Source: Candidatus Latescibacterota bacterium (GTDB lineage: Bacteria; JAAXHH01). From it: a stretch of 64,000 bases of DNA. Each line of letters begins with the position of its first letter. Position 1 is the first letter of the stretch. The position numbers and the translations under genes are program-made. This document shows, piece by piece, positions 20,690-52,383 of the stretch. The notes under the pieces are model-generated. The model was not told the DNA's origin. It did no database searches and saw only the letters and a list, made by a program, of their open reading frames with translations. The stretch is taken from positions 1,073,330 through 1,137,329 of the forward strand of contig JAJEEG010000006.1 of assembly GCA_022821085.1 (NCBI GenBank). The letters run 5' to 3'.

Positions 20690-21505
20690 ATGAAACTGGA
20701 CTTTCTACTCATAACCGCGACGGAGAAGGAACAGGAGCCGGTCCGGGCACGGATGGAGATCTCCGGGACGGACCATCCCCTGGCCCGGCCCTGGCACCTG
20801 GGTTCGTTGTGCGGGAAGTCGGTGCTCCTGATCGAAGGCGGCGTGGGTCAGGTCAATACAGCCTCGGCCCTGACCCTGGCGCTGACCCGCCATGATCCCG
20901 CCGTGATCCTGCAATTCGGCGTAGGCGGCGCATACGAGCGGTCCGGTCTCGAAGTGGGTGACCTCGCCATTGCCACGGAGGAATGCTACGGCGATACCGG
21001 CGTCCTGACCCCGGAAGGCTGGATGGACCTGGAAAAGATGGGCTTTCCCATGCTTCCTCCCGCCCGGACCGGCGACCAGGGACAGCCCGACGCCGAAGGG
21101 CAGACCGTAGACAACGGGCAGACAGAGCGGGCACTCAGCAAGCCCCTGTACAACCGGATACCCCTCGACGCCACGCGGACCGAGCGCATCCTCCGATATC
21201 TTGAATCCGGACTGGAAGGCCGATCGTCGCACCAGGTCACCTCCGGGCCCTTCGTCACGGTGCAGCAGTGCAGCGGCGTCCAGGCGGCCGGAGATACGCT
21301 GGCCGCCCGTTTCGGGGGGATATGCGAGAACATGGAAGGCGCGGCGGCGGCCCACGTAGCCGAGGCCAACGGGATCCCCTTCGTGGAGATACGCGGCATC
21401 AGCAACAGGGTGGTCGACCGGGACCTGTCGCAATGGGATCTGCCCCGGGCGATCCGGCGCGGTCAGCAGGCGGTCGAACGAATCGTCGAACAGGGAGTTT
21501 CCTGA
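20690..21505 (+). CDS. mqnB: Futalosine hydrolase-like nucleosidase (PNP/MTA-nucleosidase fold), probable MqnB
   Basis: PNP_UDP_1-type fold (..GVGQVNTASALTLAL..., ..ENMEGAAAAHVAEANGIPFVEIRGISN..); immediately upstream of mqnD; contains ~45 aa insertion relative to typical short MqnB. Confidence 0.6.
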   Translation: MKLDFLLITATEKEQEPVRARMEISGTDHPLARPWHLGSLCGKSVLLIEGGVGQVNTASALTLALTRHDPAVILQFGVGGAYERSGLEVGDLAIATEECYGDTGVLTPEGWMDLEKMGFPMLPPARTGDQGQPDAEGQTVDNGQTERALSKPLYNRIPLDATRTERILRYLESGLEGRSSHQVTSGPFVTVQQCSGVQAAGDTLAARFGGICENMEGAAAAHVAEANGIPFVEIRGISNRVVDRDLSQWDLPRAIRRGQQAVERIVEQGVS

Positions 21506-21581
21506 TGCGCCGCACACTCCCGGTGCCTCCTTTTTTTAGTAGTTTATGCGACCTTGGTCCCGCTCGCAGAGGGGGTTCACC

Positions 21582-22409
21582 ATGACGGCCCTTTCTCTCG
21601 GCTATTCGCCCTGTCCCAACGACACCTTCATCTTCTGCGCCATGATCCAGGGGCGGATCCCCGATGCGCCGCGGTGCAGGGAAGTGCTGGAGGATATCGA
21701 GACCCTGAATACACTGGCCCTGAAGCGTGAACTGGACCTGACGAAAATCTCCTTTCACGCCTTCGGTCACCTTCGGGATCACTACGTCCTGCTCCGGCCA
21801 GGCGGAGCCCTGGGCAGGGGTTGCGGTCCGCTGGTGGTCGCGCGGGAACCGCAGCGGCCGGAAATGCTGAAAGGCCGGAAGATCGCCCTGCCCGGCCGGC
21901 TGACCACGGCGGCGCTGCTGCTGAGGCTCTTCGATCCCGGCCTGGACCGCCTGGTCTACCTGCCCTTCGACCAGATCATGCCGGCCTGCCGGCGAGGCGA
22001 AGTCGACGCCGGGGTGATCATTCACGAGAGCCGGTTCACCTTCGCCGAACACGGTCTATCCCAGGTGATCGATCTCGGTGCGTGGTGGGAGGAGGAAACG
22101 GGGCACCCGATTCCCCTGGGCGGTATCCTCGCGCGCAGGGATCTTGGCGGTGCCATGCACGAACGGCTCAACCGGTCGATACGATCGAGCATCGAATACG
22201 CATACGCCCATCCTGATGAAGTGAAGCCTTATATCCGGCGTCATGCCCAGGAGATGGATGAATCGGTCATGCAGCAACATATCGATCTCTATGTGAACCA
22301 GTACTCGCTGCAGTACGGCGAAGAAGGAGAAGCGGCAATTCGCGACCTGTTCGACCGGGCCGAACGGGCGGGTATCGTCCCGTCATCGAAGCATTTCCTG
22401 TTCGAGTAA
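21582..22409 (+). CDS. mqnD: 1,4-dihydroxy-6-naphthoate synthase (MqnD) of the futalosine menaquinone pathway
   Basis: N-terminal LSLGYSPCPNDTFIF signature of MqnA/MqnD family; start at internal Met 21582. Confidence 0.7.
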   Translation: MTALSLGYSPCPNDTFIFCAMIQGRIPDAPRCREVLEDIETLNTLALKRELDLTKISFHAFGHLRDHYVLLRPGGALGRGCGPLVVAREPQRPEMLKGRKIALPGRLTTAALLLRLFDPGLDRLVYLPFDQIMPACRRGEVDAGVIIHESRFTFAEHGLSQVIDLGAWWEEETGHPIPLGGILARRDLGGAMHERLNRSIRSSIEYAYAHPDEVKPYIRRHAQEMDESVMQQHIDLYVNQYSLQYGEEGEAAIRDLFDRAERAGIVPSSKHFLFE

Positions 22410-23338: not shown

Positions 23339-24160
23339 CTATGGAAGCTCTTCCATCAGGTCCCGGATGAAGCGTAGGTCCGACCGGGCGAGATCGCAGA
23401 CCGTGTCCACGGGAACGCCCCCGTATTCGCTGTGCATGGTGACGGGCCCTTCGAACCCCTGGGCCTTCAGCGTGGACAGTGTCGTTTTCCAGTCTCCGAA
23501 GCCTGTGCCCAGCCGGACCACGTCGACTTCCCACCGCCTTTGGCCGTCCCGAACATGCAACACCCTGGTCAGGTCCTTGAACGACATGACGGACAGGTAC
23601 TCCCTGACGATGTCGAGGGCCATGTCGATCGGCTCTCCGCAGATGGACAGGTGCCCTACGTCCGCGAACACGCCGACGTGTTCGGGATCGAATCCCTGCA
23701 CGACGTGCATGACGGCGGATGAATTCAGGCCCATGGAGTGGCCCGAATGGTTGTGCACCACGGTTTTGACGCCGGTTTTCTCCGAAAGACGCTGGAATCC
23801 CTCCAGTTCCCTCCGCGCACGGTCCAGTTCCGCCCAGTAATCCGTTCCCGGCGACCAGTGCCAGTACCCCAGCTTGATGTGCTTTACCCCGTTCTCCCCG
23901 CAGGCCTGGTAGTATCTCTCCGCGTAATCCAGCGTGGCCGAAGTGAAATCCCCCGGTGCGGTAACGAGCGGGATAGTTAGTCCTTCGTCGGAAAGCACCC
24001 GCGCGGCTTCCGGCAGGGCGCGGTCGATGTTCCCAGGATTCACCGGATATCCGTCCCGCACGCACAGGTCGGCGCCGGAAACGCCTACGCTATTCAGTTT
24101 CTCCGCGATTTCCGCCAGCGTCAGACCCTCGAGGTGCTTGGTGAACATGATAAACTGCAT
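23339..24160 (-). CDS. Sugar phosphate isomerase/epimerase (xylose isomerase-like TIM barrel) family protein
   Basis: Family-typical layout with metal-binding His/Asp/Glu positions (..VVHNHSGHSMGL.., ..FADVGHLSICGE..). Confidence 0.8.
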   Translation of the reverse strand: MQFIMFTKHLEGLTLAEIAEKLNSVGVSGADLCVRDGYPVNPGNIDRALPEAARVLSDEGLTIPLVTAPGDFTSATLDYAERYYQACGENGVKHIKLGYWHWSPGTDYWAELDRARRELEGFQRLSEKTGVKTVVHNHSGHSMGLNSSAVMHVVQGFDPEHVGVFADVGHLSICGEPIDMALDIVREYLSVMSFKDLTRVLHVRDGQRRWEVDVVRLGTGFGDWKTTLSTLKAQGFEGPVTMHSEYGGVPVDTVCDLARSDLRFIRDLMEELP

Positions 24161-24177: not shown

Positions 24178-26238
24178 TCAGTAGGACTCCCAGCGATGAG
24201 GCCGGTCCGGGAACCAGGCCAGGTCAACTCCCATGCCGGCCAGCTGCCAGAAGAGATAGGCGAGCAATATACCAATAAACAACCTGCGGACCTTCTGGTA
24301 AAGCGTTGGGCCGCCGATGCGGAACACGATGGCCTGGACCAGCCAGGCCAGGAAGATCGTCAGGAACGCGTTCCGTACCGGGGCGGACATGACGACCACC
24401 ATGCCGATGGGATGGAGCGGCCACCACGGAAGGAGAAACCGCCCGGCCAGGAGCACGATCATCATCACGACCCCGCTCCCGAAGAACAGGACTTCGAGGT
24501 CGCTGATCTGCGTTGCGTTGTTGACCCAGGTCACGATCAGGTCGTAGAACCGGATGCCCCGGTCCGTGCCCAGGTCGGTCCGCAGGTTCTGGGCGCCGAA
24601 GGTGTTCCCGGCGTAGATTACGTAGCCGATGGAGGCTACGGCGCTCAGGCAGAACGCGACGGCCACGCCGGCGAAGAGGTACCTGGAAGAGATCCCGCTC
24701 CCGGAACTGCGCGCATCCCTAAGCGGATCGCGCCGGACTTGCCTGTGCTGGCGCCACCGGGACTTCAGCCAGGCCACGTGGGACGTGCCGATCATGGTGA
24801 AGGTGCGCCAGTTGCGCGCGAACCCGTTGGCCATGCCCAGGGCTGTGAGGTCGCCGCGGCCGATCTGTGCGGACCCCACGATGGCGATGGAGAACTGGTG
24901 GCTGTTGATGGGCAGGTCGAGCGTCACCACGCCCGTTTCCGCCACGACGCGGGCCAGGGCGATGTAGAAGATGAAGAGCAGGACAATGAACAGCGCCATG
25001 ATCGGAAGGGACATCCCGGCGGTGTACAGCCAGCAGATGATGAAGAGGAGGCCCAGCAGGAAGCCGAAGACGGCCGTGCGGTAGGAGAACAGTTCCTCCG
25101 TGTCGTCCAGCTCGCTCTTCCGGCCCAGGGCGTGGCGCCAGACGGACCCGAGGTGCCGGCGAGCCATCCAAAGGCCGAAGAGGACGAAGGTAACCAGGCC
25201 GGCAATGGACTGAATGCCGGCCAGGCCGCCATGGATGATGGTACCGGAGGTGGATCCGACACCGAGCATGTTGAGCGATCCCTCCTGCAGTACGTAGAAG
25301 ACGGGAAACAGCCACATGCTGAGGAGCACGTCCCGGTTGACGAAGATCAGCAGGCAGAATACGAACACGTTTAACCGGAAAATGAGCCCGGGAAAGGCGG
25401 GATCGAGGGAAAGTACCCGTGAGTGTTCGGCCATGATCGGGACAGCAGGCCATACGTCCCAGAAAGAAACGATGTTCCAGATCATGACCAGGGACATGGC
25501 CGCCGCGCCGGTCCGGATCCAGCGGTTGCCGCCTTTCCCATTTCCGCTTTTCCCATTGTCGCCACCCTCCCCAGCGCCGCCACCCTCTCCGGTGCCGCCT
25601 TCCCTACTGCCGCCGCCCAGCGAGATCAGGTGCAGGCCCACTTCGCCCAGCGGGAACTGGAGCCGTTCGTGTTCGACCCACTGCTTGCGAAGCATGACGA
25701 CGATGCACGCGCCGACGAAAAGCAGGATCAGGATGAAGGAACCCCACCAGAACAGGGGGGACAGCCATGCGCTCCAGGGAATCGACTGGCCGGACTGGAG
25801 TCCCTCGTAGAATACCCGCGCCGCCGCCCGGTCGCTGAGGACCAGCCATTCGGGCAGATAGGGAAAGAAGATGGTCTCCCAGCTGTTTTCCGGCGAGGCG
25901 AAGTAGAACGGCGCGGTGATCACGACGAGCAGGTATTTCGTCATGGCCTGGTCGGGCACCGTGGAGGCGATCCATCCCATGGCGAAAACCATGATCAGTT
26001 CGTAGAACGAGAGCGCCGATGCCGGACGGATCCGCGCCACCAGGGCATTGGGCAGCAGCACGCAGAAGAGGAAGGGAACGAGGAACACCGGGGGCAGGTG
26101 GGTCGCCGCCGGCTCGTAGCCGATCTGGTTGGCGGAGTATTCCCCCGCAAAGCCGATGAATATCGAAAGTGCGGCCCCGATGAGGATCGCCCTGAATGTT
26201 CGGATGCGCTGGAGGAAGGCCGATGCGATCGGTATCAT
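24178..26238 (-). CDS. Uncharacterised large polytopic membrane protein (paralog A of 52384-54366)
   Basis: 686 aa, >12 predicted TM helices; shares with paralog B the motifs PFY.A.PEN.W, VMLRKQWVEHERL.FPL, VLFGLWMARRH, E.FSYRTAV, ARVVAETG, WPLHP.G; Gly-rich insertion GGGSREGGTGEGGGAGEGGDNGKSGNGKGGN unique to this copy. Confidence 0.7.
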   Translation of the reverse strand: MIPIASAFLQRIRTFRAILIGAALSIFIGFAGEYSANQIGYEPAATHLPPVFLVPFLFCVLLPNALVARIRPASALSFYELIMVFAMGWIASTVPDQAMTKYLLVVITAPFYFASPENSWETIFFPYLPEWLVLSDRAAARVFYEGLQSGQSIPWSAWLSPLFWWGSFILILLFVGACIVVMLRKQWVEHERLQFPLGEVGLHLISLGGGSREGGTGEGGGAGEGGDNGKSGNGKGGNRWIRTGAAAMSLVMIWNIVSFWDVWPAVPIMAEHSRVLSLDPAFPGLIFRLNVFVFCLLIFVNRDVLLSMWLFPVFYVLQEGSLNMLGVGSTSGTIIHGGLAGIQSIAGLVTFVLFGLWMARRHLGSVWRHALGRKSELDDTEELFSYRTAVFGFLLGLLFIICWLYTAGMSLPIMALFIVLLFIFYIALARVVAETGVVTLDLPINSHQFSIAIVGSAQIGRGDLTALGMANGFARNWRTFTMIGTSHVAWLKSRWRQHRQVRRDPLRDARSSGSGISSRYLFAGVAVAFCLSAVASIGYVIYAGNTFGAQNLRTDLGTDRGIRFYDLIVTWVNNATQISDLEVLFFGSGVVMMIVLLAGRFLLPWWPLHPIGMVVVMSAPVRNAFLTIFLAWLVQAIVFRIGGPTLYQKVRRLFIGILLAYLFWQLAGMGVDLAWFPDRPHRWESY

Positions 26239-26314
26239 CTGGCGGTAGCTGGGACGGGCTCGGTCCGCACGGTCAAGTGGGAACGGTCAGGTACGGACGG
26301 TCAGTTGCGGGCCG

Positions 26315-27721
26315 TCAGGTCCATACGGTCAGCCCCATGACGAGGTATACGGCACCGGTCAGCACGGCGGCGATCATCGCATAGGGGATCTGGGTCCTGA
26401 CGTGATCGATATGATCCGATGCCGCGCCGGTCGAAGCGAGAATCGAGGTATCGGAGAGTGGAGAACAGTGATCGCCGAAGACTCCGCCGCCGGCCACGGC
26501 CGCTATGGTCGCGTATACGATGTCGGTCAACGCGTCCCCCGAGTAAACCAGGGCCACGGGCACCGCGATGGGCAGCATGATGGCGAAGGTGCCCCAGGAC
26601 GTACCGGTGGAAAAGGCCATCACGGCCGCCAGCAGGTAGGTAGCCAGGGGGAGCATGGACGGGGTAAGGAAATCCCTCGAAATCGATACCATGTAGTCGG
26701 CCGTTCCCATGTCTCTGCTCAACTGGTTGATCGTGTAGGCGAAAACCAGGATCATGATGGCCGGCATGATCCCCTTGATGCCCGTCATCGCCGTGTCCAT
26801 GATGTCGTTCAGCCGAATGCCCTGGATGCGGATCGATATGCCGAGGAAGATGACGACGGCGAGATAGGCCTCCAGCGTCTTCGCGGATCCCGTGAGCATA
26901 AAAGAACCCAGGACGATGACGATGATCAGGATGACGGGCAGGATGAAGTTCAGGAACAGGCGGGGTTTGATGTCCGGGAACATGGGGGTCTCGGTCAGTT
27001 CCCTTCCGATGAGCGGGACCGCGCCGTCTCTCAGCACCTTGCCTTCGTCCATGGCCCGGCGTTCGGCTTTCTTCATGGGACCGAATTCCGGGACCAATCC
27101 GGCAGCGATCAATCCCACCAATATCACCGCCGATATTGCGTAGATATTGTAGGGAATGGAATGAATGAACGCGTTCAGCGCATCGCCGGCATCGTCTATG
27201 GGCCCCATGCCGATGGTGAGTCCCGAAATGTAGATCGCCCAGCCCGTGAAGGGCAGGAGGACGATGACCGGGGCGGAGGTGGAGTCGGCGATATAGGCCA
27301 GTTTCTCCCTGGATATCCGCGCCTTGTCGGCCAGGCTTCGCATCGTGGTCCCGACGAAGAGCGGGCTGAAATAGTCGCTGAAGAATACGAACATGCCCAG
27401 TGCCCACGTCCAGAGTTGTACGCCTTTGCGCGACAATTTCCGATATGCCACGAACTGGGTGAAGGCCTGGATGGCGCCGGTGCGCATGAAGAAGGCGATC
27501 ATGATTCCGATGCAGATCTCCAGCATGAACACCCAGGAGAAACTGGTATTCCCGATCGCGTCGATCATCAACTGGGAAAACCCCAGGGGCCCCTGGCCCG
27601 CGATTAGGACGCCCACCAGGCAGGCCACCGCCAGGGAATACACGGCGTTCCTGGTCAGGAAGGCCAGTACGATGGCAAGGGCCGGCGGCACGATGGAGAG
27701 GATGCCGAGGTCGGTTTCCAT
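26315..27721 (-). CDS. Na+/H+ antiporter NhaC-family transporter
   Basis: Polytopic; C-terminal region ..GGVFGDHCSPLSDTSILASTGA.. characteristic of NhaC family; overlapping 26301-27809 ORF in another frame is Arg/Gly/His-rich junk. Confidence 0.8.
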   Translation of the reverse strand: METDLGILSIVPPALAIVLAFLTRNAVYSLAVACLVGVLIAGQGPLGFSQLMIDAIGNTSFSWVFMLEICIGIMIAFFMRTGAIQAFTQFVAYRKLSRKGVQLWTWALGMFVFFSDYFSPLFVGTTMRSLADKARISREKLAYIADSTSAPVIVLLPFTGWAIYISGLTIGMGPIDDAGDALNAFIHSIPYNIYAISAVILVGLIAAGLVPEFGPMKKAERRAMDEGKVLRDGAVPLIGRELTETPMFPDIKPRLFLNFILPVILIIVIVLGSFMLTGSAKTLEAYLAVVIFLGISIRIQGIRLNDIMDTAMTGIKGIMPAIMILVFAYTINQLSRDMGTADYMVSISRDFLTPSMLPLATYLLAAVMAFSTGTSWGTFAIMLPIAVPVALVYSGDALTDIVYATIAAVAGGGVFGDHCSPLSDTSILASTGAASDHIDHVRTQIPYAMIAAVLTGAVYLVMGLTVWT

Positions 27722-27807
27722 GGGGGATCCCCGGATTTGAAATTGGATAGAATCTCAAATAAGAAACATCTATCGGGCGCTTCAGGCAACCACCTATATT
27801 GTGATAC

Positions 27808-28653
27808 ATGAATCATCTCGGTTTCATGCTGATCGATCCGCCCTCCCGATGGGGCGGGAGTATTAACGACACCTTCCGTTTCATTCGATCCATCGGATAT
27901 GACGGCGTGGAATTGAATCTCACCTCCGAACTGGCGGGCCGTCTGGACCATGTGGAGGACGCCGTCCAGGCGCATGATCTGCCGGTCGTTTCGCTGCTCA
28001 CGGGTGCGGCGTACGAGGAGGGACTCTGTCTCAGCGCGCCGGATGCAACCATCCGCGATCGAACGGTCGAGCGCCTGGTGGAGAACATGGGGATCGCGAA
28101 TCGGTTCGGGGCCATCCTGGTGGTCGGCCTGTTGCAGGGCCTGCGCTCCGACGAACCGGACCCTGCGGCCGCCAATGCGCGGATCGTTTCCTGTCTGCAA
28201 CGGGTGGGACGGGAAGCCGAGGCCAGGGGGGTCGACATCGTGATCGAACCGGTAAACCACCTCCAGGTGGGATTCAACAACAGCGTCGGGGAAGTCCTGC
28301 GTCTGATCCGCGACACCGGATCCACTGCCTTCCATCCCATGGTCGACACCATCCACATGAATATCGAGGAGACCTCCCTCGTACAGCCCATCCACGACTG
28401 CGGCGCCCGTCTCAGGCACGTTCATCTCTGCGAAAGCCACGGGGGACTGCCGGGTACCGGCCGCATCGACTTCGCGGCCGTCCTCGATACCCTGGAAGAC
28501 GTGGACTATGCCCATTTCGCTTCGGTGAAGGTCTACAGGAAGGCCGGACTGCGCGAAGCGGCGGAACAGAGCATGGCCTTCTTCACGGAACTGGAATCGG
28601 GCCAGGCGCGCCGCGGCGGCCGGACAAGTGATTCAGGGGATCGGTACGCTTGA
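27808..28653 (+). CDS. Sugar phosphate isomerase/epimerase (xylose isomerase-like TIM barrel) family protein
   Basis: ..IGYDGVELNL.., ..VDIVIEPVNHLQ.., ..HVHLCESHGG.. conserved metal-site pattern. Confidence 0.8.
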   Translation: MNHLGFMLIDPPSRWGGSINDTFRFIRSIGYDGVELNLTSELAGRLDHVEDAVQAHDLPVVSLLTGAAYEEGLCLSAPDATIRDRTVERLVENMGIANRFGAILVVGLLQGLRSDEPDPAAANARIVSCLQRVGREAEARGVDIVIEPVNHLQVGFNNSVGEVLRLIRDTGSTAFHPMVDTIHMNIEETSLVQPIHDCGARLRHVHLCESHGGLPGTGRIDFAAVLDTLEDVDYAHFASVKVYRKAGLREAAEQSMAFFTELESGQARRGGRTSDSGDRYA

Positions 28654-28682: not shown

Positions 28683-29699
28683 TCACGGCCATGCCGGCTT
28701 TCGCGGTCGCCCGGTGCGGACGGACTCGAGACCGGCCTCGCAAACGGCCACGACGCGGGCGCCCATGCGGGCGGGAATCGGGTTTTCGATGCGCCCGTCG
28801 AGCGTGTCCAGGAAATCGATGACGGAACGGCCCCAGCCGTGCCCGCCCACGGCGGCCTCGTCGGAGACGTTGGGCAGCGTCACGGGTTCTTCCCCCCTGC
28901 GATACAGCTTACCGTTCCAGAGCGTCCCTTCGGTGCCGTACACGGCCAGCATGCCGCCTCCCATACCGTGTCCGGAGCAACCGCTCGAGACGAAGACCTT
29001 TCCAAGCACCCCGTTCTCGAACTTCAGCATGACGATATAGCAGTCGTCCGAGGGAAATTCGGGCACGCTCATCTTGCTGCTGTAGGCAAATACCTCCACG
29101 ACGGGCGAGTCGACCGTGGACAGGATGCTGTCGATGGGGTGGCAGCCGCCGCCAAAGAGTATGTTCTGCGGATGCTGCCGGTCGATCCGCCAGGGCGTGT
29201 GCCTACGCTCGCCGGGCTGGTAGATGGACCACATGTCGTGGATGTAGTCACCCTGGATGAAGAAGATCTCGCCGATTTCACCCGATCGGGCGGCACGGGA
29301 CATCTCGTGCCAGGGATACATGTACCTGCTGGTATGATCCGTCATCACGTTCAGGCCCGTCCGTTCGGCGGTTTCGATGACGCGCCGGGCATCGGCGACG
29401 GTCGTGGCGAGCGGTTTCTCCACGAGGGCGTGGGCACCGTGTTCCAGGGCCAGGACGGTCTGGTCGGCGTGCAGGTGGTCCGGTCCGGCCACCGCGACGA
29501 CGTCCGGACCGGTTTCGGCGATCAGTGATTCGAGGTCGTGGCCGGTAACCGCATCGGGGTAGATCGACCTGGCCGCCGCGAGCTTCTCACCGGCCGGGTC
29601 GAACAGGGCGGTCACCCGGGCACGGCCGCTCCCTTCCGCCACCTGGGCCACGTACTTTCCCGCGCCGCCGCAACCGCTGAGGAGTATGGAATAGGGCAT
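28683..29699 (-). CDS. Gfo/Idh/MocA-family oxidoreductase
   Basis: MPYSILLSGCGGAGKYVAQ Rossmann start, EKPLATTVADARRV. Confidence 0.8.
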   Translation of the reverse strand: MPYSILLSGCGGAGKYVAQVAEGSGRARVTALFDPAGEKLAAARSIYPDAVTGHDLESLIAETGPDVVAVAGPDHLHADQTVLALEHGAHALVEKPLATTVADARRVIETAERTGLNVMTDHTSRYMYPWHEMSRAARSGEIGEIFFIQGDYIHDMWSIYQPGERRHTPWRIDRQHPQNILFGGGCHPIDSILSTVDSPVVEVFAYSSKMSVPEFPSDDCYIVMLKFENGVLGKVFVSSGCSGHGMGGGMLAVYGTEGTLWNGKLYRRGEEPVTLPNVSDEAAVGGHGWGRSVIDFLDTLDGRIENPIPARMGARVVAVCEAGLESVRTGRPRKPAWP

Positions 29700-36282: not shown

Positions 36283-38490
36283 TCATCTCGAACCCGCACC
36301 AATGGGAAGGCCGAACCCCACGTACCACGTCCGGCCCGCAGCCGGCTCGAAGAAACGATCCCCGAAGGCGTTGGGGACGATGGAACCATTGTAACGCGTA
36401 TCAAACAGGTTGTTGACGCCAGCGAACAGGACGCCGCCGACCGTCGCGCCTTGGTAGGTGATGCCAGCGCGCAAATCAACGAGGCCGTAGCCGTCGTTGA
36501 CGAAGTCGGATACCGGCTTTCCGCTCCCGGGAGCGGGCCCGTTGAAGTCGTTGGCGAAGTACTCCGCCGTCCATTGCGCGTTTAACTCCACGAACGCGCC
36601 ATTGTCCGGATGGGTGTAGGTGAATCCGGCGAACAGGTGGTGGGGCGGCACGCCGGGCACTTCGTTGTCCGACAGCTGGACGAGCCTGGTGGTTCCATCG
36701 ACCTCCCGCTCGACTTCGAAGTCGTCGAATTTGAATTGCATGCCGGTGTAGGCCATCGCCAGGTTGACCGGGGGCAGAGGAGACCAGGTCAGCTTCAGTT
36801 CGATGCCCCGGTTCCGCGTTTTGCCCGCATTGCGGAAAAAGACCTCGTCCGTCTCCGGATTGTCGATCTGGAAGGGCAGGAGCATATTGCGTATCCCGAA
36901 GGTGAAGAGGGCGGCGTCATAGGCTAATCCGGCATCGGGCAGGAATCCCTTTACGCCTGCCTCGAAGCCCCGAATTCGTTCGGGCTCGAGATCCGGATTG
37001 AAACCTCCGGCCTGCGTGGGCTGGTTGCTCAGTTCCGTAGTGGTCGGCGTCTGGAAGGCGGTGGAGAAATTGCCGTACACCGCCGTGAGCGGGGCAGGCC
37101 GGAAAGCCACGCCCAGGTGGGGGCTGAACTGCGCCATGTTCCGCGTTCCAGAATCGTCGGTCTGGTCACTCAGGAAACGGTCCGTCGCCTCGTATCGGAA
37201 CCGGTCGTACCGTCCGCCGGCGGTGATTGATACCTCCGGTCCGGGTGACCATTCCAGCTCCACGAAGGGGCCGAAGCCGTCGACGCCTTCCTCCTGGTCC
37301 AGCAGTTTGTCGCCGCGCGAAATTTCGTCGAAGACGCGTGCGTCGTCCAGCGTGCCCACGAGATCTCCCGGAATGCCGGCGTTGCCGTATTCGCGCCGTT
37401 CGTCGCGCTGTATCTCCAAATCCAATCCGGCCGTCATCCGGTATCCGCCGTTTCCGATCCCACCCTCGCGGCTATACACCCCCCGAATTCCCCCGGCCAT
37501 GCGGTCCAGGTCGATGATCCGGCCCGGAATGGGGTTGAACAGCGTGCGTCCCATGCCGAAGACCGTGATTTCTCCTTCGGCCCCGGGCGCTTCGTAACGC
37601 AGGGACAGGCCGCCCTGGAACTGTCTGATCTCCTTGGACGCGCCCTGTCGCTGGACGAAAGTTCTAGCGCTGGCGGGGTCCGACTCGGCCGTGGCCTTGT
37701 CGAGTGAGCTCGGGTTGTACTGGTACGGTGCGTTGTAGTAATTGGCCACGGCCGTCATGGTCCAGGTATCGTCGATCCTTCGTTTCCCGACCGAGTTGAT
37801 ACCGGTCGAACGTGCAAAGGCATGGTCGCGGAACCCGTCGAACCAGAGCGTATTGAAATTGACGAGAAACCGGTTGCCGCCCGCGGTGCCGGCCGCCTTG
37901 CCCTGCAGTCGCCGCAGGCCATGCGAACCGGTGATGAAACGGGGCGTGACTTCGATCGGCCGGTCCGGGGCATCTTCGGTGCGAATCTGGATGACACCGC
38001 CCGCCGCGTTGCCGTAAAGCGACGAACTGGGACCGCGCAATACTTCGATCTGCCCCGCCGAGGTGAGATCGAGGTTGTTGAGCTGGGACTGGCCGTCGGC
38101 CATGGTCAGCGGAATGCCGTCCAGCACCAGCTTCACCCCGCGCACGCCGAAGGACGCCCGGCTGCCCAGGCCGCGGATGCTGATCCGGTCGCCCTGGGAC
38201 ACGTTGTTCCGGTTGTTTACGATGATGCCCGGCAGTCCACGGACACTCTCTTCCAGGGACAGCCCGGGTTCGGCGCGCTGGATCTCGTCCCGGTCCACCC
38301 GGTCCACGGCATAGGGTATGTCGAGGATCTCCCGGATGTAGCGGGTAGCGGTGACTTCAATGGGTTGAAGGACGTGATCTACGTCAACATCGGTGGTGTC
38401 CGGAGTCGACTGCGGCCAGGCGTGGGCGGGTAGCGGATGCAGAAACAGATGCAGGAAAAGGAAACCGCAGGCTGGAAGAATCGTTTTCAT
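36283..38490 (-). CDS. TonB-dependent outer-membrane receptor
   Basis: Signal peptide, plug domain (..LSLEESVRGLPGIIVNNRNNVSQGDRISIRGLG..IEVLRGPSSSLYGNAAGGVIQIRTE..), long beta-barrel. Confidence 0.85.
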   Translation of the reverse strand: MKTILPACGFLFLHLFLHPLPAHAWPQSTPDTTDVDVDHVLQPIEVTATRYIREILDIPYAVDRVDRDEIQRAEPGLSLEESVRGLPGIIVNNRNNVSQGDRISIRGLGSRASFGVRGVKLVLDGIPLTMADGQSQLNNLDLTSAGQIEVLRGPSSSLYGNAAGGVIQIRTEDAPDRPIEVTPRFITGSHGLRRLQGKAAGTAGGNRFLVNFNTLWFDGFRDHAFARSTGINSVGKRRIDDTWTMTAVANYYNAPYQYNPSSLDKATAESDPASARTFVQRQGASKEIRQFQGGLSLRYEAPGAEGEITVFGMGRTLFNPIPGRIIDLDRMAGGIRGVYSREGGIGNGGYRMTAGLDLEIQRDERREYGNAGIPGDLVGTLDDARVFDEISRGDKLLDQEEGVDGFGPFVELEWSPGPEVSITAGGRYDRFRYEATDRFLSDQTDDSGTRNMAQFSPHLGVAFRPAPLTAVYGNFSTAFQTPTTTELSNQPTQAGGFNPDLEPERIRGFEAGVKGFLPDAGLAYDAALFTFGIRNMLLPFQIDNPETDEVFFRNAGKTRNRGIELKLTWSPLPPVNLAMAYTGMQFKFDDFEVEREVDGTTRLVQLSDNEVPGVPPHHLFAGFTYTHPDNGAFVELNAQWTAEYFANDFNGPAPGSGKPVSDFVNDGYGLVDLRAGITYQGATVGGVLFAGVNNLFDTRYNGSIVPNAFGDRFFEPAAGRTWYVGFGLPIGAGSR

Positions 38491-38544
38491 CGAGTACCGA
38501 ATCGATGCGGCGGGGCGGACGAAGGGCCCGCCCCGCGGTGTGCA

Positions 38545-39171
38545 CTAATCCAATGAACGGATCTTGACGTTCTTGAACCGGATTTTGCCCTGGCCGAAGG
38601 CCTGCAGCACGACGACGCCGCTGTAATGGGAGGAATCCTGGATCTTGACGGCTTCTTCCCCGTTCAGCGTAACCGTAATGTCACGTCCGTCGGCGGTGAT
38701 GACCATGGTGTTCCACTGGCCTTCGGTCTTAGGCGGCGGTTCGTACTTGGCCAGCGCCACGATGCTGCCGGTGGTGTAGCCCGAGCCGTGGGTATCCGCG
38801 ATATTGATCTCGTAGAAGGAATACTGGTTCACCCTCGCCCCGGTATCACGCGGCCCGCGTACGAAGACACCGCTGTTGTGGCCGGCGTCCTGGTTGAACT
38901 GCACGCTCAACTCAAAGTTCGTGAACTCGGCGTAGGACCCGATGTATCCGGGGCCACCCGTCGCTTCCCCGGTGAGCATGCCGTCTTCCACCGCCCAGAT
39001 GGCGGTACCGCCGCGGTGGGTCCAGCCCAGGAGGGTCTGGCCGTCGAACAGCAGTTTCCAGCCCGCCTCCTGCTCCGCTTCGGTCAGCATATTGTCCTGA
39101 GCGGCAGCCGTGCCCTGCATACAGGCCGCGAAAAGGGCGGCGGCCGCAAGGCTCCAGATGTAGCGTTTCAT
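38545..39171 (-). CDS. DUF1080 (3-keto-disaccharide hydrolase-like jellyroll) domain protein, secreted
   Basis: Signal peptide; EQEAGWKLLFDGQTLLGWTH...IWAVEDGMLTG...YAEFTNFELSVQF...NSGVFVR pattern typical of PF06439. Confidence 0.75.
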   Translation of the reverse strand: MKRYIWSLAAAALFAACMQGTAAAQDNMLTEAEQEAGWKLLFDGQTLLGWTHRGGTAIWAVEDGMLTGEATGGPGYIGSYAEFTNFELSVQFNQDAGHNSGVFVRGPRDTGARVNQYSFYEINIADTHGSGYTTGSIVALAKYEPPPKTEGQWNTMVITADGRDITVTLNGEEAVKIQDSSHYSGVVVLQAFGQGKIRFKNVKIRSLD

Positions 39172-39197
39172 TACGAATCTCCTGTGTTAGTCGCCAA

Positions 39198-41204
39198 CTA
39201 TTCGCCTTCTTCGGCTTCGGGTTCCGGACCCAGCTTCAATGCTATCAACTCGGCAGGATGACCACCGGCGCCAACCGTCATGATGAGGTACTGCACGTCA
39301 TTGTGCATGTAGGTCATGGGCATGCCGCTTTGGGCCGCCGGCAGTTCGATCGACGCGACGACTTCGCCCGTCGCCTTGTCGTAGGCGTGGAGATAAGGAT
39401 CTCCTCCGAAGCCCTCGCCTGCGAAGAGCAGCGTGCTCGTCACCAGGGAACCGATACGGGTGGCCTTGCCGGTCCGGGGCAGATCGACGCCCGCAAGCTG
39501 CGGCAGGTCCTTGATGGCCTGCGGCGTATCGCCGTTAGGCGCCATCCACACGTGATCGCCCGTGTTCATATCGACCGCGGTGATCCGTCCCCAGGGCGGC
39601 CTGACCAGCGGGATCTCGCCGAAGACCCTCGGCGCCCTCAGCCCGGCCGAGAAGTAGTCCATGTCCGATTCTTCGGGATCCGGCGCCCGGAGCGCCAGCT
39701 TCGAAATGCTGGTATTGGAAGGAATGAAATTCACGCCGGTGACCGGGTCCAGGCAGGTCATGTTCCAGTTGACCCCGCCGTTCGCGCCGGGAATCTGTAT
39801 CGTGCCGATGGTACCGTCCGGCGCTTCCGCGAGCGAAGGCGGCTGGAAAAGCGGCCCGTACCGGTGGTTGGCCATCAGGTTGATCGCCTCCTGGCGCACC
39901 TCCGGGGTGAAGTCCACCAGGTCGTCCTGACTGATGCCCTGGTGTTCCCAGGGAGCGGGCTTCACGGGAATCGGTTGCGTGGGCGAAGCCCGGTCGCCAG
40001 GCACGTCCGAGGCAGGCACGTCCGTTTCCGGCATATCCCAGATGGGTTCGCCAGTCACCCGGTCGAACACGTAGGAATACCCCTGTTTGGTGTTCTGGAT
40101 CACGATCTTGCGATCTTCGCCGTCGATCGTCACGTCGGCCAGGATCGGCGCGGCGGGATTGTCATAGTCCCAGATATCGTGATGGACGATCTGGAAGTGC
40201 CAGATCTTTTCACCCGTCGTGTAATCGACGGCCACCAGGCTGTTCGCGTACAGGTTGTCGCCCAGGCGATGCCCGCCGTAGTAATCGTTCGTCGGCGCTT
40301 CGACAGGCAGATAGGCATAGCCCAGTTCGGTATCGGCGGAGATGGAGGTCCATACGCCGGCGTTCCCGGTATAGGATCTCGAATTCTGCTCCCAGGTCTC
40401 CGCGCCTTCTTCGCCTTCGTCCGGTATAACCTTGAACTTCCACAGGATTGCGCCGGATCGTGCGTCGTAGGCTACGACGTCTCCCGGCGAGTTGGTCATC
40501 GACCGGGGCCGGAATCCCGCGGCGAGGGCCGGCGGAACGAGAATGATGTCCTCCACGACCGTCGCGGGAGACGTGTTGGCGAGGTTGCCGACGGGCGTGA
40601 CGTTCTCCGCGTTGCGCCAGCCTTCCATCATGTCGACCACGCCGTTATTGCCGAATTCGGCCACCGGGATGCCCGTTTGGGCGTCGAGGGCCACCAGGTA
40701 AAACCCCCGGGTGATCAGAATGACCCGGTTGTCGCCCTGACCGTCGGTCCAGAACGAGACGCCGCGCCCGGAATTTCGCCGCGGAGCCGTTGCCCAGCGT
40801 TCTTCGTCCTCCACCGGGCGGTAGGTCCACATTGTCTCGCCCGTTTCCGGCTCGATGGCCATGGCGCTGCGCCGCGTACCCGCCGTGGAATAAAGCATGC
40901 CGCCGACGTAGATGGGCACCGGCTGGGCGTAGTACTCGGGACGGGGGCCGTAGTTGTCCTGCTTCCATCGCCAGGCGACCTCGAGGCGGCCCACGTTATC
41001 CGCATTGATCTGATCCAGCGGGGAATAGCGCGTGTAGGCCAGGTCGCGGCCCAACATGCGCCATTCGGAATCGGGCTGTTCCACCGGTATGATCTTACCC
41101 GGCGCCCTTTGTGCCGCGGGTTCGCAGGATGCTAATATCGTGATCGCCATGGCCAGCGCGATCAACGGCGGCGTCCATCGAAACAAGGGGGAAAATCTAC
41201 TCAT
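39198..41204 (-). CDS. PQQ-dependent dehydrogenase (quinoprotein beta-propeller), lipoprotein
   Basis: Lipobox LASC; repeated W-containing propeller motifs (..VAWRWKQD.., ..GETMWTYRP.., ..GAILWKFKV.., ..GEKIWHFQIVHHDIWDYD.., ..GEPIWDMPE..); GGGAGG SD before Met 41204. Confidence 0.8.
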   Translation of the reverse strand: MSRFSPLFRWTPPLIALAMAITILASCEPAAQRAPGKIIPVEQPDSEWRMLGRDLAYTRYSPLDQINADNVGRLEVAWRWKQDNYGPRPEYYAQPVPIYVGGMLYSTAGTRRSAMAIEPETGETMWTYRPVEDEERWATAPRRNSGRGVSFWTDGQGDNRVILITRGFYLVALDAQTGIPVAEFGNNGVVDMMEGWRNAENVTPVGNLANTSPATVVEDIILVPPALAAGFRPRSMTNSPGDVVAYDARSGAILWKFKVIPDEGEEGAETWEQNSRSYTGNAGVWTSISADTELGYAYLPVEAPTNDYYGGHRLGDNLYANSLVAVDYTTGEKIWHFQIVHHDIWDYDNPAAPILADVTIDGEDRKIVIQNTKQGYSYVFDRVTGEPIWDMPETDVPASDVPGDRASPTQPIPVKPAPWEHQGISQDDLVDFTPEVRQEAINLMANHRYGPLFQPPSLAEAPDGTIGTIQIPGANGGVNWNMTCLDPVTGVNFIPSNTSISKLALRAPDPEESDMDYFSAGLRAPRVFGEIPLVRPPWGRITAVDMNTGDHVWMAPNGDTPQAIKDLPQLAGVDLPRTGKATRIGSLVTSTLLFAGEGFGGDPYLHAYDKATGEVVASIELPAAQSGMPMTYMHNDVQYLIMTVGAGGHPAELIALKLGPEPEAEEGE

Positions 41205-41252
41205 CACACGCTGCCTCCCATGATGCGGGTTGATTGGTGCTGCAAATCGCAT

Positions 41253-41422
41253 GTTCGAAATCGTTATGATACGGAGATGTCACGGACCGGGATAAGCGTT
41301 CAAGCCCGTATTCCCTGTATACAAAACAGGCGATCTGGTATTGAATAGTTTTGTAAATATCAGACCAATGTAGCGTCACGCATTTTCGATGTAAAGCCCT
41401 TTATGGAGAACCTGACCATGGC
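41253..41422. promoter_or_regulatory. AT-rich intergenic region upstream of PQQ dehydrogenase operon (probable promoter/regulatory region)
   Basis: 170 bp with markedly lower GC than surroundings (..aaatcgcatgttcgaaatcgttatgatacgg..ttgaatagttttgtaaatatcagaccaatg..) in a 65% GC genome. Confidence 0.3.
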
Positions 41423-43159
41423 CTAGTCCCTGCGTGGCCAGGGCGTCTCGGGCGGACCGAAACGAGGTTCTCCCAGCACGGGGGTCGACAGGCAGTAGAA
41501 ACCGTGATTGGCAAACAGCCAGACCAGGTTGCGGTCGTATTCGACGTAAATGCCATGGGTCAGATTGCCCAGGGCGTACTCCGGGGTGCGGGAAGGATCG
41601 AATTTCGGTACGAAGTAGGCGGTAATCTCCGGATTGGAGAGGTCGGAGACATCGAATACCTGTACGCCGGCGTTGTAGAAGGCATAGAGGAGGATGTCCT
41701 CCTTCGGCGTACCGGGCTGGGTATAGTAGCCGCTTCGTTTCGGCCCGAAACTACCGCGCCGCTGCACGAAATCCGTGAACGGCGCATCCGCGGGCGGCAC
41801 CGGCCGGGGCAGCGTGCCGAGCAGTTCGGGATTGACCGGATCGTTCACGTCGATCATGAAGATGTCCTTGTACGGCTCCCAGCCGTCTTCGTTCAGCGGA
41901 TAACCGGAGAAGTAGACCACGCCGGTCTTTTCCACCTGCGTCACGTTGATGTAGTCGCCTTCCGTGCCCGCGACGCTGGGCGGGAAGTTGAGGTGTCCCA
42001 GCGCCTTGATCGCGGCCGGGTCCGAGATGTCCAGCACGTAGAACCCCAGTCCTCCCATGGCGGCATAACCGTACCTGCCGCCTTCCTCCACGGGCCGGGC
42101 CATGAAGATCGACATGCGCGCGCCGAACCAGGAGGTCCGGTTTCCAGCACGGGGATTGGCCCGGTATGCGGCCTCGTCGTCCGGATCACCCAGTTTCTGG
42201 CCCGGCACGTTGAACTGGCTGACGAACATCGGATTGGACGGGTCGGACAGGTCCCATGCCTGGTAGCCGGCCGAGTACAGGTCGCTCGGGTATTCGGTCA
42301 GGGCGTATTCCGCGCTGGGCGCCGCGGCGACGAACATGTATCGGCCGCCGTGCCAGGCCGGGATGTCCCGGACGCCGGAGCCCTGTTGCTCGCCGACAGG
42401 CGCGTCGGGATGCTCGTAGTCTGTGGTTCGCTCGGCGAGCAAGGTCCAGTCTTCCGGCAGGGGCCCGTTCATCTCGTATACCTTGAATCCTTTGAGATGA
42501 TTGGCATGGCGAATCGCCTCAACCCGGTCCGGTTCCGCGCGCTTGTCGCTCAGCACGCCGAAGCGCCGGATCTCGAAGGCCTGCACCATGATATGCTTGC
42601 CCAGATCCTCGTTCCACTGGATGGACGCGGCGCCGAACATGTCGTCTTCGGCATAGGGATTGACTTCTTCGCCGGGCCCGTCTCCGGTCCACGTACTGCC
42701 CTTCTCATGGACGACTTTCAAGTCCTTCGGATCGGTGATATCATAGATTTTGAGGGCACGGCGCACGTACTGGTACATGTACCGCCGACCGTCGAAGTCC
42801 ACGATGTTCTGCCAGGTATGAAAGGGTTCGACGGTGATCGGGTAGTAGGCCTCGACGGTCATGTCCTTCGCGTACTCGTTCGTATCCCAGTAATCCAACT
42901 GGCCTTCGAAGGGTTTGGACTCATGCTGATGAGGTGTGGCCGCGGGGTAGATGAACCGGCCGGTCTCCGGGTCCATCCCGTAGCTCGCGGGATCGGGTTC
43001 GGGGGGCGTACGATCCTCCGCCAGCGCGTCGGCGTGGAGGACGAATTCGTCCACTATGTTGGACTGGGACGGGGATTCGCGCTCCGTTGAAGATCCGCAG
43101 CCGGCGGCGATCGTTCCACATAGCAGCGCGGCAACAAGGGGCGTCATGCGTGTCTTCAT
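41423..43159 (-). CDS. LVIVD-repeat beta-propeller lipoprotein
   Basis: Lipobox AAGC; repeated L.V.D.SDP..P units (IYDITDPKDL, WDLSDPSNP, YVLDISDPAAI, VQVFDVSDLSNPE). Confidence 0.5.
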   Translation of the reverse strand: MKTRMTPLVAALLCGTIAAGCGSSTERESPSQSNIVDEFVLHADALAEDRTPPEPDPASYGMDPETGRFIYPAATPHQHESKPFEGQLDYWDTNEYAKDMTVEAYYPITVEPFHTWQNIVDFDGRRYMYQYVRRALKIYDITDPKDLKVVHEKGSTWTGDGPGEEVNPYAEDDMFGAASIQWNEDLGKHIMVQAFEIRRFGVLSDKRAEPDRVEAIRHANHLKGFKVYEMNGPLPEDWTLLAERTTDYEHPDAPVGEQQGSGVRDIPAWHGGRYMFVAAAPSAEYALTEYPSDLYSAGYQAWDLSDPSNPMFVSQFNVPGQKLGDPDDEAAYRANPRAGNRTSWFGARMSIFMARPVEEGGRYGYAAMGGLGFYVLDISDPAAIKALGHLNFPPSVAGTEGDYINVTQVEKTGVVYFSGYPLNEDGWEPYKDIFMIDVNDPVNPELLGTLPRPVPPADAPFTDFVQRRGSFGPKRSGYYTQPGTPKEDILLYAFYNAGVQVFDVSDLSNPEITAYFVPKFDPSRTPEYALGNLTHGIYVEYDRNLVWLFANHGFYCLSTPVLGEPRFGPPETPWPRRD

Positions 43160-44292
43160 GGCTTGGCTTCCATGGGCGTGACGAGCCGGCCGATGCCCTC
43201 GATCTCCATTTCCACCACGTCGCCCGGCATGAGATATTCGGGCGGATTCCGGGCGCGGCCCACGCCGTCCGGCGTGCCCGTGGCGATCACGTCGCCCGGA
43301 TAGAGGGTCTGGACGGAGGTCAGATACCGAATCATGTGCGCTTCATCGTAGATCATGTAGCTGGTGTTGCTGTCCTGCTTGATCACGCCGTTGACCCAGG
43401 TCCTGATGTCGAGGTCGTCATGCTGGATGAACTCCTTGGGTACGATGTAGGGCCCGAAGGGGGCGGCGCGGTCGCTGCTTTTGCCGTTGAACCAGTTCGG
43501 ACCGGGGAACATGCGGTTGATCGGCTTCAGTCCGGAGCCGCCCCTGCGGCTGACGTCGAACAAGATGCTGTAGCCGAAGACATAGTCGTGGGCGTTTTCG
43601 AGGGTCAGGTCCAGGGCCGGCCTGCCGATGATGATGGCGAGTTCGACCTCCCAGTCGATGTTCACGTCCTTCGGCACGTAATAGGGTTCTCCCGGATCGA
43701 TAATGGTGGATCTTGGCGACTTGGCGAAGAAATAGGGTTCTTCGGCGTCCACGTCCACTTCAACGGCAGTGAAACCCGCGCCCCCGATGGCCGATTCTTC
43801 CATCTCGTCCGCGTGGGCCCGGTAGTTCGCCGCGGCCGCCAGCAGGTTGTAGGGATACTTGATCGGCGCCTTGAAGGAGACGTTCTCCGGATCGAATACG
43901 AAGGGCAGGTCCGGGTTCGACAGGCGGTTTTCCGCGCCCATGTAGTTCGCGATCGTGTACATGCGGTTGGATACGGCGTCGTATTGCTCGATCAGCGCCC
44001 GCATTTCCTTCGGAATGGATGCCACGGGCAATCCAAGCTGACGGGTGACGTAGGCGTTCGCCTCGTGCAGGTCCATCAGCCTTTCCTGGTTCGCCTGGCC
44101 CGGCTGGCCCGCCTGGCCCGTCTGGACCGACATGCCGATGCGGATCGTTCCCGTGGCCTCGAAGGTGGCGAGCTTGAAGGGCGTATCCGGCTGGTCGGAT
44201 ACCTGGGACCGGGCCGAGCCTGGTGCAGTCAGCCATAGCGCGGCGCCAATCAACAGTACAGCGACCGGCAGAAATCGTATCCGGTGCGGCAT
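43156..44292 (-). CDS. Fumarylacetoacetate hydrolase (FAH) family protein with signal peptide and ~120 aa N-terminal extension
   Basis: ..DWEVELAIIIGRPALDLTLENAHDYVFGYSILFDVSRR.. FAH-fold signature; N-terminus MPHRIRFLPVAVLLIGAALWLTAPGSARS; stop overlaps start of downstream LVIVD gene. Confidence 0.75.
   Translation of the reverse strand: MPHRIRFLPVAVLLIGAALWLTAPGSARSQVSDQPDTPFKLATFEATGTIRIGMSVQTGQAGQPGQANQERLMDLHEANAYVTRQLGLPVASIPKEMRALIEQYDAVSNRMYTIANYMGAENRLSNPDLPFVFDPENVSFKAPIKYPYNLLAAAANYRAHADEMEESAIGGAGFTAVEVDVDAEEPYFFAKSPRSTIIDPGEPYYVPKDVNIDWEVELAIIIGRPALDLTLENAHDYVFGYSILFDVSRRGGSGLKPINRMFPGPNWFNGKSSDRAAPFGPYIVPKEFIQHDDLDIRTWVNGVIKQDSNTSYMIYDEAHMIRYLTSVQTLYPGDVIATGTPDGVGRARNPPEYLMPGDVVEMEIEGIGRLVTPMEAKP
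44093..44128. repeat. In-frame 9-bp tandem repeat x4 (gcctggccc-like) inside FAH-family gene
   Basis: gcctggccc ggctggccc gcctggccc gtctggacc; encodes QTG-QAG-QPG-QAN on minus strand. Confidence 0.75.
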
Positions 44293-44480
44293 AGCAGCAA
44301 CCTCCTTGATGACCGGTCGATCCGGGCGTTATCGTATCTCCAGGAAGAGACAGCGCACCAGATCGCGGGATTACAGATCAGGCGACCTGCCGGAGCATCC
44401 GGCCAGATAGTCGCGGGATAACGGGGTGCGGAAGCGTACAGGTGGGATGGATATGTCGAATTGTTGTTTGAGAAATCGGA

Positions 44481-44555
44481 TCGGGGCGGGGAGATTTGAA
44501 CTCCCGACCTCCTGCTCCCGAAGCAGGCGCGCTGACCGGGCTGCGCTACGCCCCG
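44481..44555 (-). tRNA. tRNA-Pro (anticodon CGG)
   Basis: Cloverleaf: acceptor CGGGGCG/CGCCCCG, D-stem GCGC, anticodon stem CCTGC/GCAGG with loop TTCGGGA, T-loop TTCAAAT; no encoded CCA. Confidence 0.85.
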
Positions 44556-44604
44556 ATGTGTGACCGATCATGGGACAAGGGCCCGGTGGGCCGCCTTGCC
44601 GGAA

Positions 44605-44678
44605 TCGGGGCGACTGGATTTGAACCAGCGACCACCAGCCCCCCATGCTGGTGCGCTACCTGACTGCGCTACGCCCCG
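44605..44678 (-). tRNA. tRNA-Pro (anticodon GGG)
   Basis: Acceptor CGGGGCG/CGCCCCG, anticodon stem CCAGC/GCTGG loop ATGGGGG, T-loop TTCAAAT. Confidence 0.8.
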
Positions 44679-44725
44679 AAAACTTCGGCGTATAATGTAT
44701 GCCGATGAGGGGCTTCGGGCAAGGG

Positions 44726-47129: not shown

Positions 47130-47239
47130 GATCCTTTCATGAATGGGATGGCGATTCCCTTGCGTCTTGCTCAGGGTACATACCAGGCCATCTGATATGC
47201 CGGCCGGCAGTCTACGCGTTCAGCCGGCAAGCACCTCGT

Positions 47240-52365: not shown

Positions 52366-52383
52366 GATGGTTTGACTGCTCCT

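Follow-up and report, generated by a model that had tools for sequence, protein, structure and literature searches.

In a 64,000-nucleotide stretch of the genome of a Candidatus Latescibacterota bacterium (assembly GCA_022821085.1, contig JAJEEG010000006.1; hereafter the window, in whose numbering all positions are given), two paralogous membrane proteins are encoded on the minus strand, copy A at 24178-26238 (686 amino acids) and copy B at 52384-54366 (660 amino acids). Each is composed of the Pfam domains DUF6785 and DUF6784, and the structural model of each matches the fold of the barley transporter Yellow Stripe 1 (HvYS1). The DUF6785/DUF6784 family is probably a deeply divergent branch of the OPT/YSL superfamily (Transporter Classification 2.A.67), with the two copies acting as secondary importers for the catabolic enzymes encoded beside them, and we have good confidence in the assignment of both copies as transporters. 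What is new here is the OPT/YSL-fold assignment of the family; no new kind of system is involved, and the pairing of each copy with a xylose-isomerase-like TIM-barrel gene is ordinary operon context.

The two genes show the codon-position G+C pattern of real genes, with a third-position G+C of 0.85 in copy A and 0.81 in copy B in a window of 63% G+C. BLASTP aligns their products end to end (34% identity over 674 columns, E 4e-116), which bears out an earlier note on this DNA that had taken the two open reading frames (ORFs) for whole-length homologues. The shared blocks quoted in that note are visible in the alignment, except that F.DYLP belongs to copy B only and copy A has FFPYLP in its place. 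The note had left the family unrecognised, saying only that it was not an obvious MFS, SSS, NhaC or RND member. The proteins are indeed polytopic, lack an assigned function and fall outside those four families, but they are already catalogued in Pfam. Both match the full length of the DUF6785 (PF20581) and DUF6784 (PF20580) models, in that N-to-C order and far over the gathering thresholds of 25 and 26.4 bits, respectively: copy A with 317.8 bits (E 1.5e-94) and 59.8 bits (E 3e-16), and copy B with 378 bits (E 8e-113) and 68.7 bits (E 5.5e-19).

Structural comparison connects these proteins to a transporter of known fold. AlphaFold2 models were obtained for copy A from a 52-sequence alignment (pLDDT 90.1, pTM 0.90) and for copy B from a 49-sequence alignment (pLDDT 87.6, pTM 0.86). 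In Foldseek searches of the PDB, HvYS1 was the sole significant fold for both, with copy A matching 7wsr (E 1.1e-6, probability 1.0, TM 0.60/0.68) and copy B matching 7wst/7wsr (E 5e-10, probability 1.0, TM 0.61-0.68), while every other match had an E of at least 0.05 and a TM of at most 0.2. Both models therefore match the fold of the only solved member of the OPT superfamily, which is built from YS-core and scaffold domains. HvYS1 is a proton symporter with a fold of its own, for which an elevator mechanism has been proposed, with D490 and D494 as the proposed proton sites (PMC9691689). The likeness to HvYS1 lies in the overall fold, over ~600-700 aligned columns, and in a similar size; sequence identity is only 12-15%, and a sequence-profile search of the PDB returned nothing relevant. 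In YS1 itself, a C-terminal beta-strand and a Cys250-Cys671 disulfide form the dimer interface. By a crude hydropathy scan each copy has 11 strongly hydrophobic segments, and the AlphaFold2 models contain ~16-20 helices, including short and re-entrant ones; OPT family members have 16 (or 17) transmembrane segments, the figure of 16 coming from PMC3061005. An internal repeat between the N- and C-terminal halves is not significant by hhalign (E 0.018, probability 2.6%), so the inverted repeat of YS1 is undetectable here from sequence. GT-C, MFS, SSS, RND, NhaC and APC/LeuT identities were rejected, as the proteins match none of these in Pfam and the Foldseek matches to LeuT-fold, MFS and NhaA structures stay within the non-significant range given above; neither model has a GT-C structure in its listed 50 best Foldseek matches.

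The family can also be aligned with OPT and YSL sequences at the profile level. For this comparison, four carrot YSL sequences from the supplement of PMC6337337 were merged with 39 prokaryotic OPT proteins, the latter built around an OPT gene annotated on a plasmid of the archaeon Halorientalis; a plant YSL tblastn search against plasmids matched this gene alone, and it served as alignment seed only. Against these 43 sequences, the DUF6785/DUF6784 profile aligns locally by hhalign with E 5.2e-6 and a probability of 86% over 475 co-linear columns, placing DUF residues 20-614 on OPT 30-563, and globally with E 6.8e-10 and a probability of 96.6%, whereas a reversed-template control gives E 0.26. 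The alignment crosses both DUF6785 and DUF6784, so the pair of Pfam entries makes up a single OPT-like unit. It is anchored by an N-terminal T.RA..iG helix, by tHLPvAaL of the DUF family facing SASIPAAV of OPT proteins, by an invariant Glu (E95 in copy B) of pfT.qEL facing gTilEN, or FTRQEN in YSL, and by ViLRKQWVEHERLxFPL facing MIPLRxYLIVxEHGxLPYPEG. These anchors are the most conserved features of the DUF family, whose invariant polar residues, in copy B numbering, are E95, R200, E374, R379, E426, H480, H583 and D646. The YSL proteins have in common with DUF6785 the N-terminal T.RA..G helix, the Glu of FT.QE(N/L) and the LRK...(L).(F/Y)P motif.

The family is large. A word-indexed search returned 223 homologues, every one carrying both domains, the named ones coming from metagenome-assembled genomes (MAGs) of Gemmatimonadota, Latescibacteria and Zixibacteria. 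An exhaustive profile search of sequences clustered at 50% identity matched 7,156 cluster representatives at E <= 1e-3 and 2,536 at the stricter E <= 1e-30. Relatives occupy at least 590 loci in species-representative genomes, and the locus-level counts given here refer to the best 80 of these (loci are denoted by L numbers), whose DUF6785 genes fall into 31 subfamilies at 60% identity. The 80 loci are mostly from Latescibacterota, several genomes having three or four copies inside that subset alone, and tandem DUF6785 pairs or triples occur at 13 of them (for example L028, L029, L051, L052, L054, L066, L068 and L078, with a triple in L058). Syntenic relatives of copy B (L001-L006, L019) share 86-94% amino acid identity and the same gene order in MAGs labelled Latescibacterota or Gemmatimonadetes, and those of copy A (L032, L034, L035, L038, L039, L043) share ~88-93% identity. 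The copy B relatives are the closest to the window, and several bin names among the loci (IRC, APA, RHO, SB0661) resemble those of sponge-microbiome studies, so that the window probably derives from a lineage of this kind.

No neighbour family is constant across these loci. Within two genes of DUF6785, GFO/IDH/MocA oxidoreductases are found in 6/31 subfamilies, PhyH dioxygenases in 5/31, MR_MLE enolase-superfamily enzymes in 4/31 and a ~1,570-amino-acid FtsX-like protein in 3/31; sulfatases, gamma-glutamyltranspeptidase, LLM oxidoreductases and TPR proteins also recur. PhyH accounts for 8/174 genes within three genes and lies near DUF6785 in L081 and L085 as well. Homologues of copy B at 57-65% identity adjoin GH4, GH95, apiosidase-like glycoside hydrolase, BNR and MR_MLE genes. 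Such shifting neighbours among homologues are what one would expect if the paralogues of a transporter family each work for a different catabolic cluster. Side by side with these counts, PhyH recurs near the family more than TIM barrels do, and L081 (GCA_001757145.1, a marine MAG) holds two DUF6785 genes amid four PhyH genes, a sulfatase, an FmdA/AmdA amidase, a gamma-glutamyltranspeptidase and PLP enzymes. In L085 (6001-12363) a natural fusion of 2,120 amino acids joins a MacB_PCD/FtsX-type protein to a C-terminal DUF6785/DUF6784 unit, and the order DUF6785, 1,570-amino-acid FtsX-like protein, DUF6785 recurs in L070, L072 and L076. In some lineages, the DUF6785 family may cooperate with FtsX-like proteins.

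Copy B lies in a 13-gene array on the minus strand (36283-55300), of which it is the sole polytopic membrane protein by hydropathy scan, and this fits the role of an inner-membrane importer for the cluster. The array opens with TIM_B, a xylose-isomerase-like TIM barrel (54470-55300; Pfam AP_endonuc_2 E 1.8e-25) 103 bp upstream of copy B, with a weak QuiC-like NCBIfam match (E 6e-13); the ORF tool starts this gene at a TTG at 55417, and the translation points to the ATG at 55300 as the likely start. Copy B is followed after 18 bp by an MsnO8-family LLM oxidoreductase (51385-52365; NCBIfam TIGR03558 E 2e-113, over cut-off), a neighbour that the earlier note had correctly named, and then by a PhyH-family Fe(II)/2-oxoglutarate dioxygenase (50394-51338; Pfam PhyH E 1.9e-32). 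The rest of the array (36283-50394, minus strand; annotated by Pfam and NCBIfam) encodes, in order, a DMFA2_C-like protein, a metallophosphoesterase, a sulfatase, an APH-like kinase, an FAA hydrolase, an LVIVD protein, a PQQ dehydrogenase of the glucose/quinate/shikimate family, a 3-keto-disaccharide-hydrolase-domain protein and a TonB-dependent receptor. In a crude scan the sulfatase has no N-terminal hydrophobic segment and is possibly cytoplasmic, and the DMFA2_C-like protein has a weak LamG-like N-terminal region. Divergent from TIM_B, at 55374-59181 on the plus strand, are genes for a Peripla_BP_2 binding protein, a fused ABC_membrane and ABC_tran protein and a DUF1854 protein, an arrangement kept in loci orthologous to that of copy B; if TIM_B is taken to start at the TTG, its ORF runs into the 5' end of the Peripla_BP_2 ORF.

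At copy A, an apparent operon on the minus strand runs from an NhaC-family transporter (26315-27721, 468 amino acids; Pfam Na_H_antiporter E 2e-49), 76 bp upstream, through copy A to the xylose-isomerase-like TIM barrel TIM_A (23339-24160; AP_endonuc_2 E 3.4e-17), 17 bp downstream. The earlier note had placed an NhaC gene with one of the copies and a same-strand TIM barrel beside each, and both statements agree with our annotation. The NCBIfam matches of the NhaC-family gene are all under cut-off, and the gene is kept in loci orthologous to that of copy A; TIM_A, whose weak IolE-like NCBIfam match (E 1.4e-4) is far under cut-off, is kept after the copy A orthologue in L032, L034, L035 and L039. 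The ORF at 26301-27809 (minus strand, 502 amino acids) was rejected as a gene because its frame is wrong: it translates into a sequence rich in Arg, His and Gly that has no Pfam match. Divergent from the NhaC gene and two genes from copy A is a third TIM barrel, TIM_C (27808-28653, plus strand; AP_endonuc_2 E 5e-33), which the earlier note had not mentioned and which is of the IolO-like keto-sugar epimerase type (NCBIfam IolO E 4e-51, under cut-off). It is followed by a GFO/IDH/MocA oxidoreductase (28683-29699, minus strand; assigned by Pfam) with a weak IolG-like match (E 9e-20, under cut-off). The wider surroundings of copy A include IolG- or levoglucosan-dehydrogenase-like GFO oxidoreductases and amidohydrolases, together with an M55 D-aminopeptidase and an M3 oligopeptidase on the opposite strand. 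At 20690-22409 (plus strand), a PNP_UDP_1 phosphorylase-family gene adjoins a VitK2_biosynth (MqnA/MqnD-type) gene in an arrangement that resembles a futalosine pathway pair, and the D-aminopeptidase gene comes after it.

These observations suggest how the two proteins would work. Each copy is most likely a single-polypeptide secondary transporter of the inner membrane, in which, by analogy with barley YS1, a substrate-binding core domain would move against a scaffold domain in elevator fashion, coupled to an ion. The most likely direction is inward, such that an imported small organic nutrient would be degraded by the cytoplasmic enzymes encoded alongside. Copy A would do so from the NhaC, DUF6785 and TIM-barrel operon, amid IolG-, IolO- and IolE-like enzymes, and copy B as the inner-membrane step of a route that may run from the TonB-dependent receptor in the outer membrane to cytoplasmic TIM-barrel, LLM and PhyH steps. 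Sugar- or cyclitol-type enzymes surround both copies by Pfam and NCBIfam, and a sugar, cyclitol, quinate-like or glycoside-derived substrate is our tentative proposal. The suggestion of the earlier note that uptake is coupled to keto-sugar processing accordingly survives in part: the most plausible role is transport that supplies sugar or keto-sugar enzymes, though not as a duplicated TIM-barrel module.

Several observations weigh against this assignment. At the level of family models, neither window protein matches the Pfam OPT model PF03169 at E <= 0.01, nor does copy B at E <= 10, and although OPT is the lowest-E non-self Pfam family among 49 family members, it is found in only 2/49 of them, with a best E of 0.0059. 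NCBIfam gives no match for either window protein and no OPT match among the 49 members. The profile link is weak when the two comparison sets are used alone (E 4.7e-4 over 166 N-terminal columns for YSL; E 0.004 over 372 columns for prokaryotic OPT), and it weakens when copy A leads the DUF alignment (E 1.4e-4, probability 53%). Neither of the canonical OPT motifs, VGSSSNPVSGMT and GDTSQDLKTGY, is conserved in DUF6785. At the core-hairpin signatures SSSNPVSG and (G)DxxQDxKTGY, the hhalign alignment sets OPT-invariant positions against non-conserved or different DUF6785 residues; alignment confidence is low in this region. The enzyme matches in NCBIfam behind our substrate proposal lie under curated cut-offs and denote family resemblance only, and the heterogeneous contexts of the family (TPR, FtsX-like, gamma-glutamyltranspeptidase, sulfatase, PhyH) make substrate inference soft. 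A literature search with the names DUF6785, DUF6784, PF20581 and PF20580 found no papers and no member studied experimentally.

The absence of these motifs indicates that DUF6785 is a divergent branch of the OPT superfamily and not a member of PF03169. Prokaryotic OPT proteins (PF03169, 2.A.67.4/5) resemble the family in being polytopic proteins of ~650 amino acids, in co-linearity over 372-475 hhalign columns and in settings that are often catabolic, and one Bacteroides OPT subcluster has already been predicted to take up xylo-oligosaccharides (PMC3061005). They differ in having VGSSSNPVSGMT and GDTSQDLKTGYLxGATP, where DUF6785 instead has RVVAETGLxxLDLPxN, RNWRT...AHxAK and WPLHPIG. They also differ in distribution, as the named members and best loci of DUF6785 are mostly from Latescibacterota, with Gemmatimonadota and Zixibacteria, and its paralogues are often in tandem. 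From the YSL proteins, DUF6785 differs in the absence of the SDLMQDFKTGY / DLMQDFKTGY motif, which, judging from its i, i+4 spacing, appears to hold the D490/D494 pair of HvYS1. Since this motif with the probable proton site of YS1 is not conserved, ion coupling may differ in DUF6785. The setting differs as well, YS1 serving plant metal-chelate uptake while DUF6785 is found in bacterial, catabolic contexts.

If the copies are importers of the OPT type, their substrate could in principle be a peptide or glutathione, as for most characterised or predicted OPT members. Peptides are the predicted main cargo of prokaryotic OPTs (PMC3061005), gamma-glutamyltranspeptidase adjoins DUF6785 in two subfamilies and in L081, and the M55 D-aminopeptidase, M3 oligopeptidase and amidohydrolases lie near copy A. 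However, those peptidase genes are on the opposite strand, and the operon partners of the window copies are TIM-barrel, LLM, PhyH and NhaC genes, with no peptidases among them. The commonest recurrent neighbours across the family are GFO/IDH/MocA, PhyH, MR_MLE and glycoside hydrolase genes, and DUF6785 does not keep the signature motifs of OPT proteins. Peptides, glutathione and metal chelates all fit the operons less well than the substrates proposed above, and we consider peptide or glutathione import improbable.

The earlier note had proposed a duplicated two-gene module of the membrane protein with a xylose-isomerase-like TIM barrel, possibly coupling uptake to keto-sugar processing. Each copy does abut a same-strand TIM-barrel gene, the pairings are kept in orthologous loci (L002-L006/L019 and L032/L034/L035/L039), and two more subfamilies have a TIM barrel no more than two genes away (L021/L022/L025; L036/L037/L040/L045/L049/L050). 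Across all representative loci, TIM barrels are enriched near DUF6785 (6/124 within two genes versus 1/178 farther away, Fisher p 0.02). The TIM partners are nonetheless unrelated to one another by BLASTP (E 1.4 for TIM_A against TIM_B, 0.45 for TIM_A against TIM_C and 0.024 for TIM_B against TIM_C), and the gene order is opposite, with DUF6785 before the TIM barrel at locus A and after it at locus B, which indicates that the pairs were not duplicated as a unit. A locally built TIM-barrel hidden Markov model, giving the same neighbour count as Pfam, places a TIM barrel within two genes in 4/31 subfamilies and in none of the other 27/31. Pfam scans of one representative locus for each of the 31 subfamilies find AP_endonuc_2 in 3/69 immediate neighbours, two of the three being orthologues of the window's loci. 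Without those orthologous loci the enrichment disappears (near 3/116 versus far 1/160, Fisher p 0.31), and by Pfam counts it is weak (6/174 within three genes versus 0 or 1 of 128 at four or more genes away, p 0.04-0.25). Furthermore, copy B homologues at 57-65% identity have other neighbours, and TIM barrels are locally dense, making up 3 of the ~45 window genes. The survey across genomes thus finds no preferential linkage to TIM-barrel genes, essentially the outcome that the earlier note had itself set against its proposal. We regard a dedicated, duplicated module as unlikely; the neighbouring TIM barrels are ordinary pathway enzymes recruited independently, with no obligate partnership.

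It is very improbable that the copies import metal chelates of the nicotianamine or siderophore type, as the YSL branch does. The sole structural match is an Fe(III)-phytosiderophore transporter, and a Peripla_BP_2 binding protein, a fused ABC transporter and a TonB-dependent receptor are encoded near copy B, but the superfamily has no other solved structure, so that the match is uninformative on substrate. In addition, the Peripla_BP_2 and ABC genes are divergently transcribed, no metallophore biosynthesis was identified among the annotated window genes, and the contexts of DUF6785 are catabolic family-wide. Equally remote is the idea that transport is not their role and that they are instead enzymes embedded in the membrane, such as GT-C-like ones, or accessory subunits of a larger envelope machine, such as an FtsX/MacB-type complex: the natural MacB_PCD/FtsX fusion, the FtsX-like proteins flanked by DUF6785 or neighbouring it in three subfamilies, and the frequent TPR neighbours speak for it, but the window copies have no FtsX or TPR neighbour, and the 50 best Foldseek matches listed are transporters, ion pumps and membrane subunits of respiratory complexes, with only YS1 significant.

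A Gly-rich loop distinguishes copy A from copy B. As the earlier note observed, this loop is real and is encoded by a GC-rich repeat: imperfect tandem repeats at 25529-25599 on the minus strand (18 nucleotides x2.2 and 15 nucleotides x1.9 by TRF) encode residues ~206-236. The loop is disordered in the copy A model (pLDDT < 50 at residues 214-232), and among the 88-93% identical orthologues it is absent in L032, L035, L038 and L039 and of other lengths in L034 and L043. Its disorder and its variable length between near-identical orthologues led us to reject functional importance, and the loop is a slippage-prone low-complexity stretch with no evident function. A second variable loop of basic character, QHRQVRRDPLRDARSSGSGI, lies at residues ~495-520 of copy A (24650-24760), where the L038 orthologue has a TARTARTAQTART repeat.

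To our knowledge, the inner-membrane uptake routes for the many catabolic clusters of Latescibacterota and Gemmatimonadota are largely unassigned. With the OPT/YSL-fold assignment, a DUF family of thousands gains a testable function, that of a secondary transporter, and the assignment would improve the annotation of uncultured Latescibacterota and Gemmatimonadota genomes, which have several copies each. It is interesting to speculate, though we think it doubtful, that DUF6785 is a large unrecognised OPT clade that has switched from peptides and metal chelates to carbohydrate-derived, cyclitol or sulfated organic substrates, has lost the YS1 Asp pair in favour of coupling through invariant Glu, Arg and His residues, and serves, sometimes fused to FtsX/MacB-type proteins, as a main gate for nutrients at the inner membrane of these poorly known bacteria, some of them sponge-associated. 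More directly, the assignment would widen the known sequence range of a superfamily with one solved structure, and a branch without the motif proposed to bind protons in YS1 would offer a natural comparison for how such transporters are energised.

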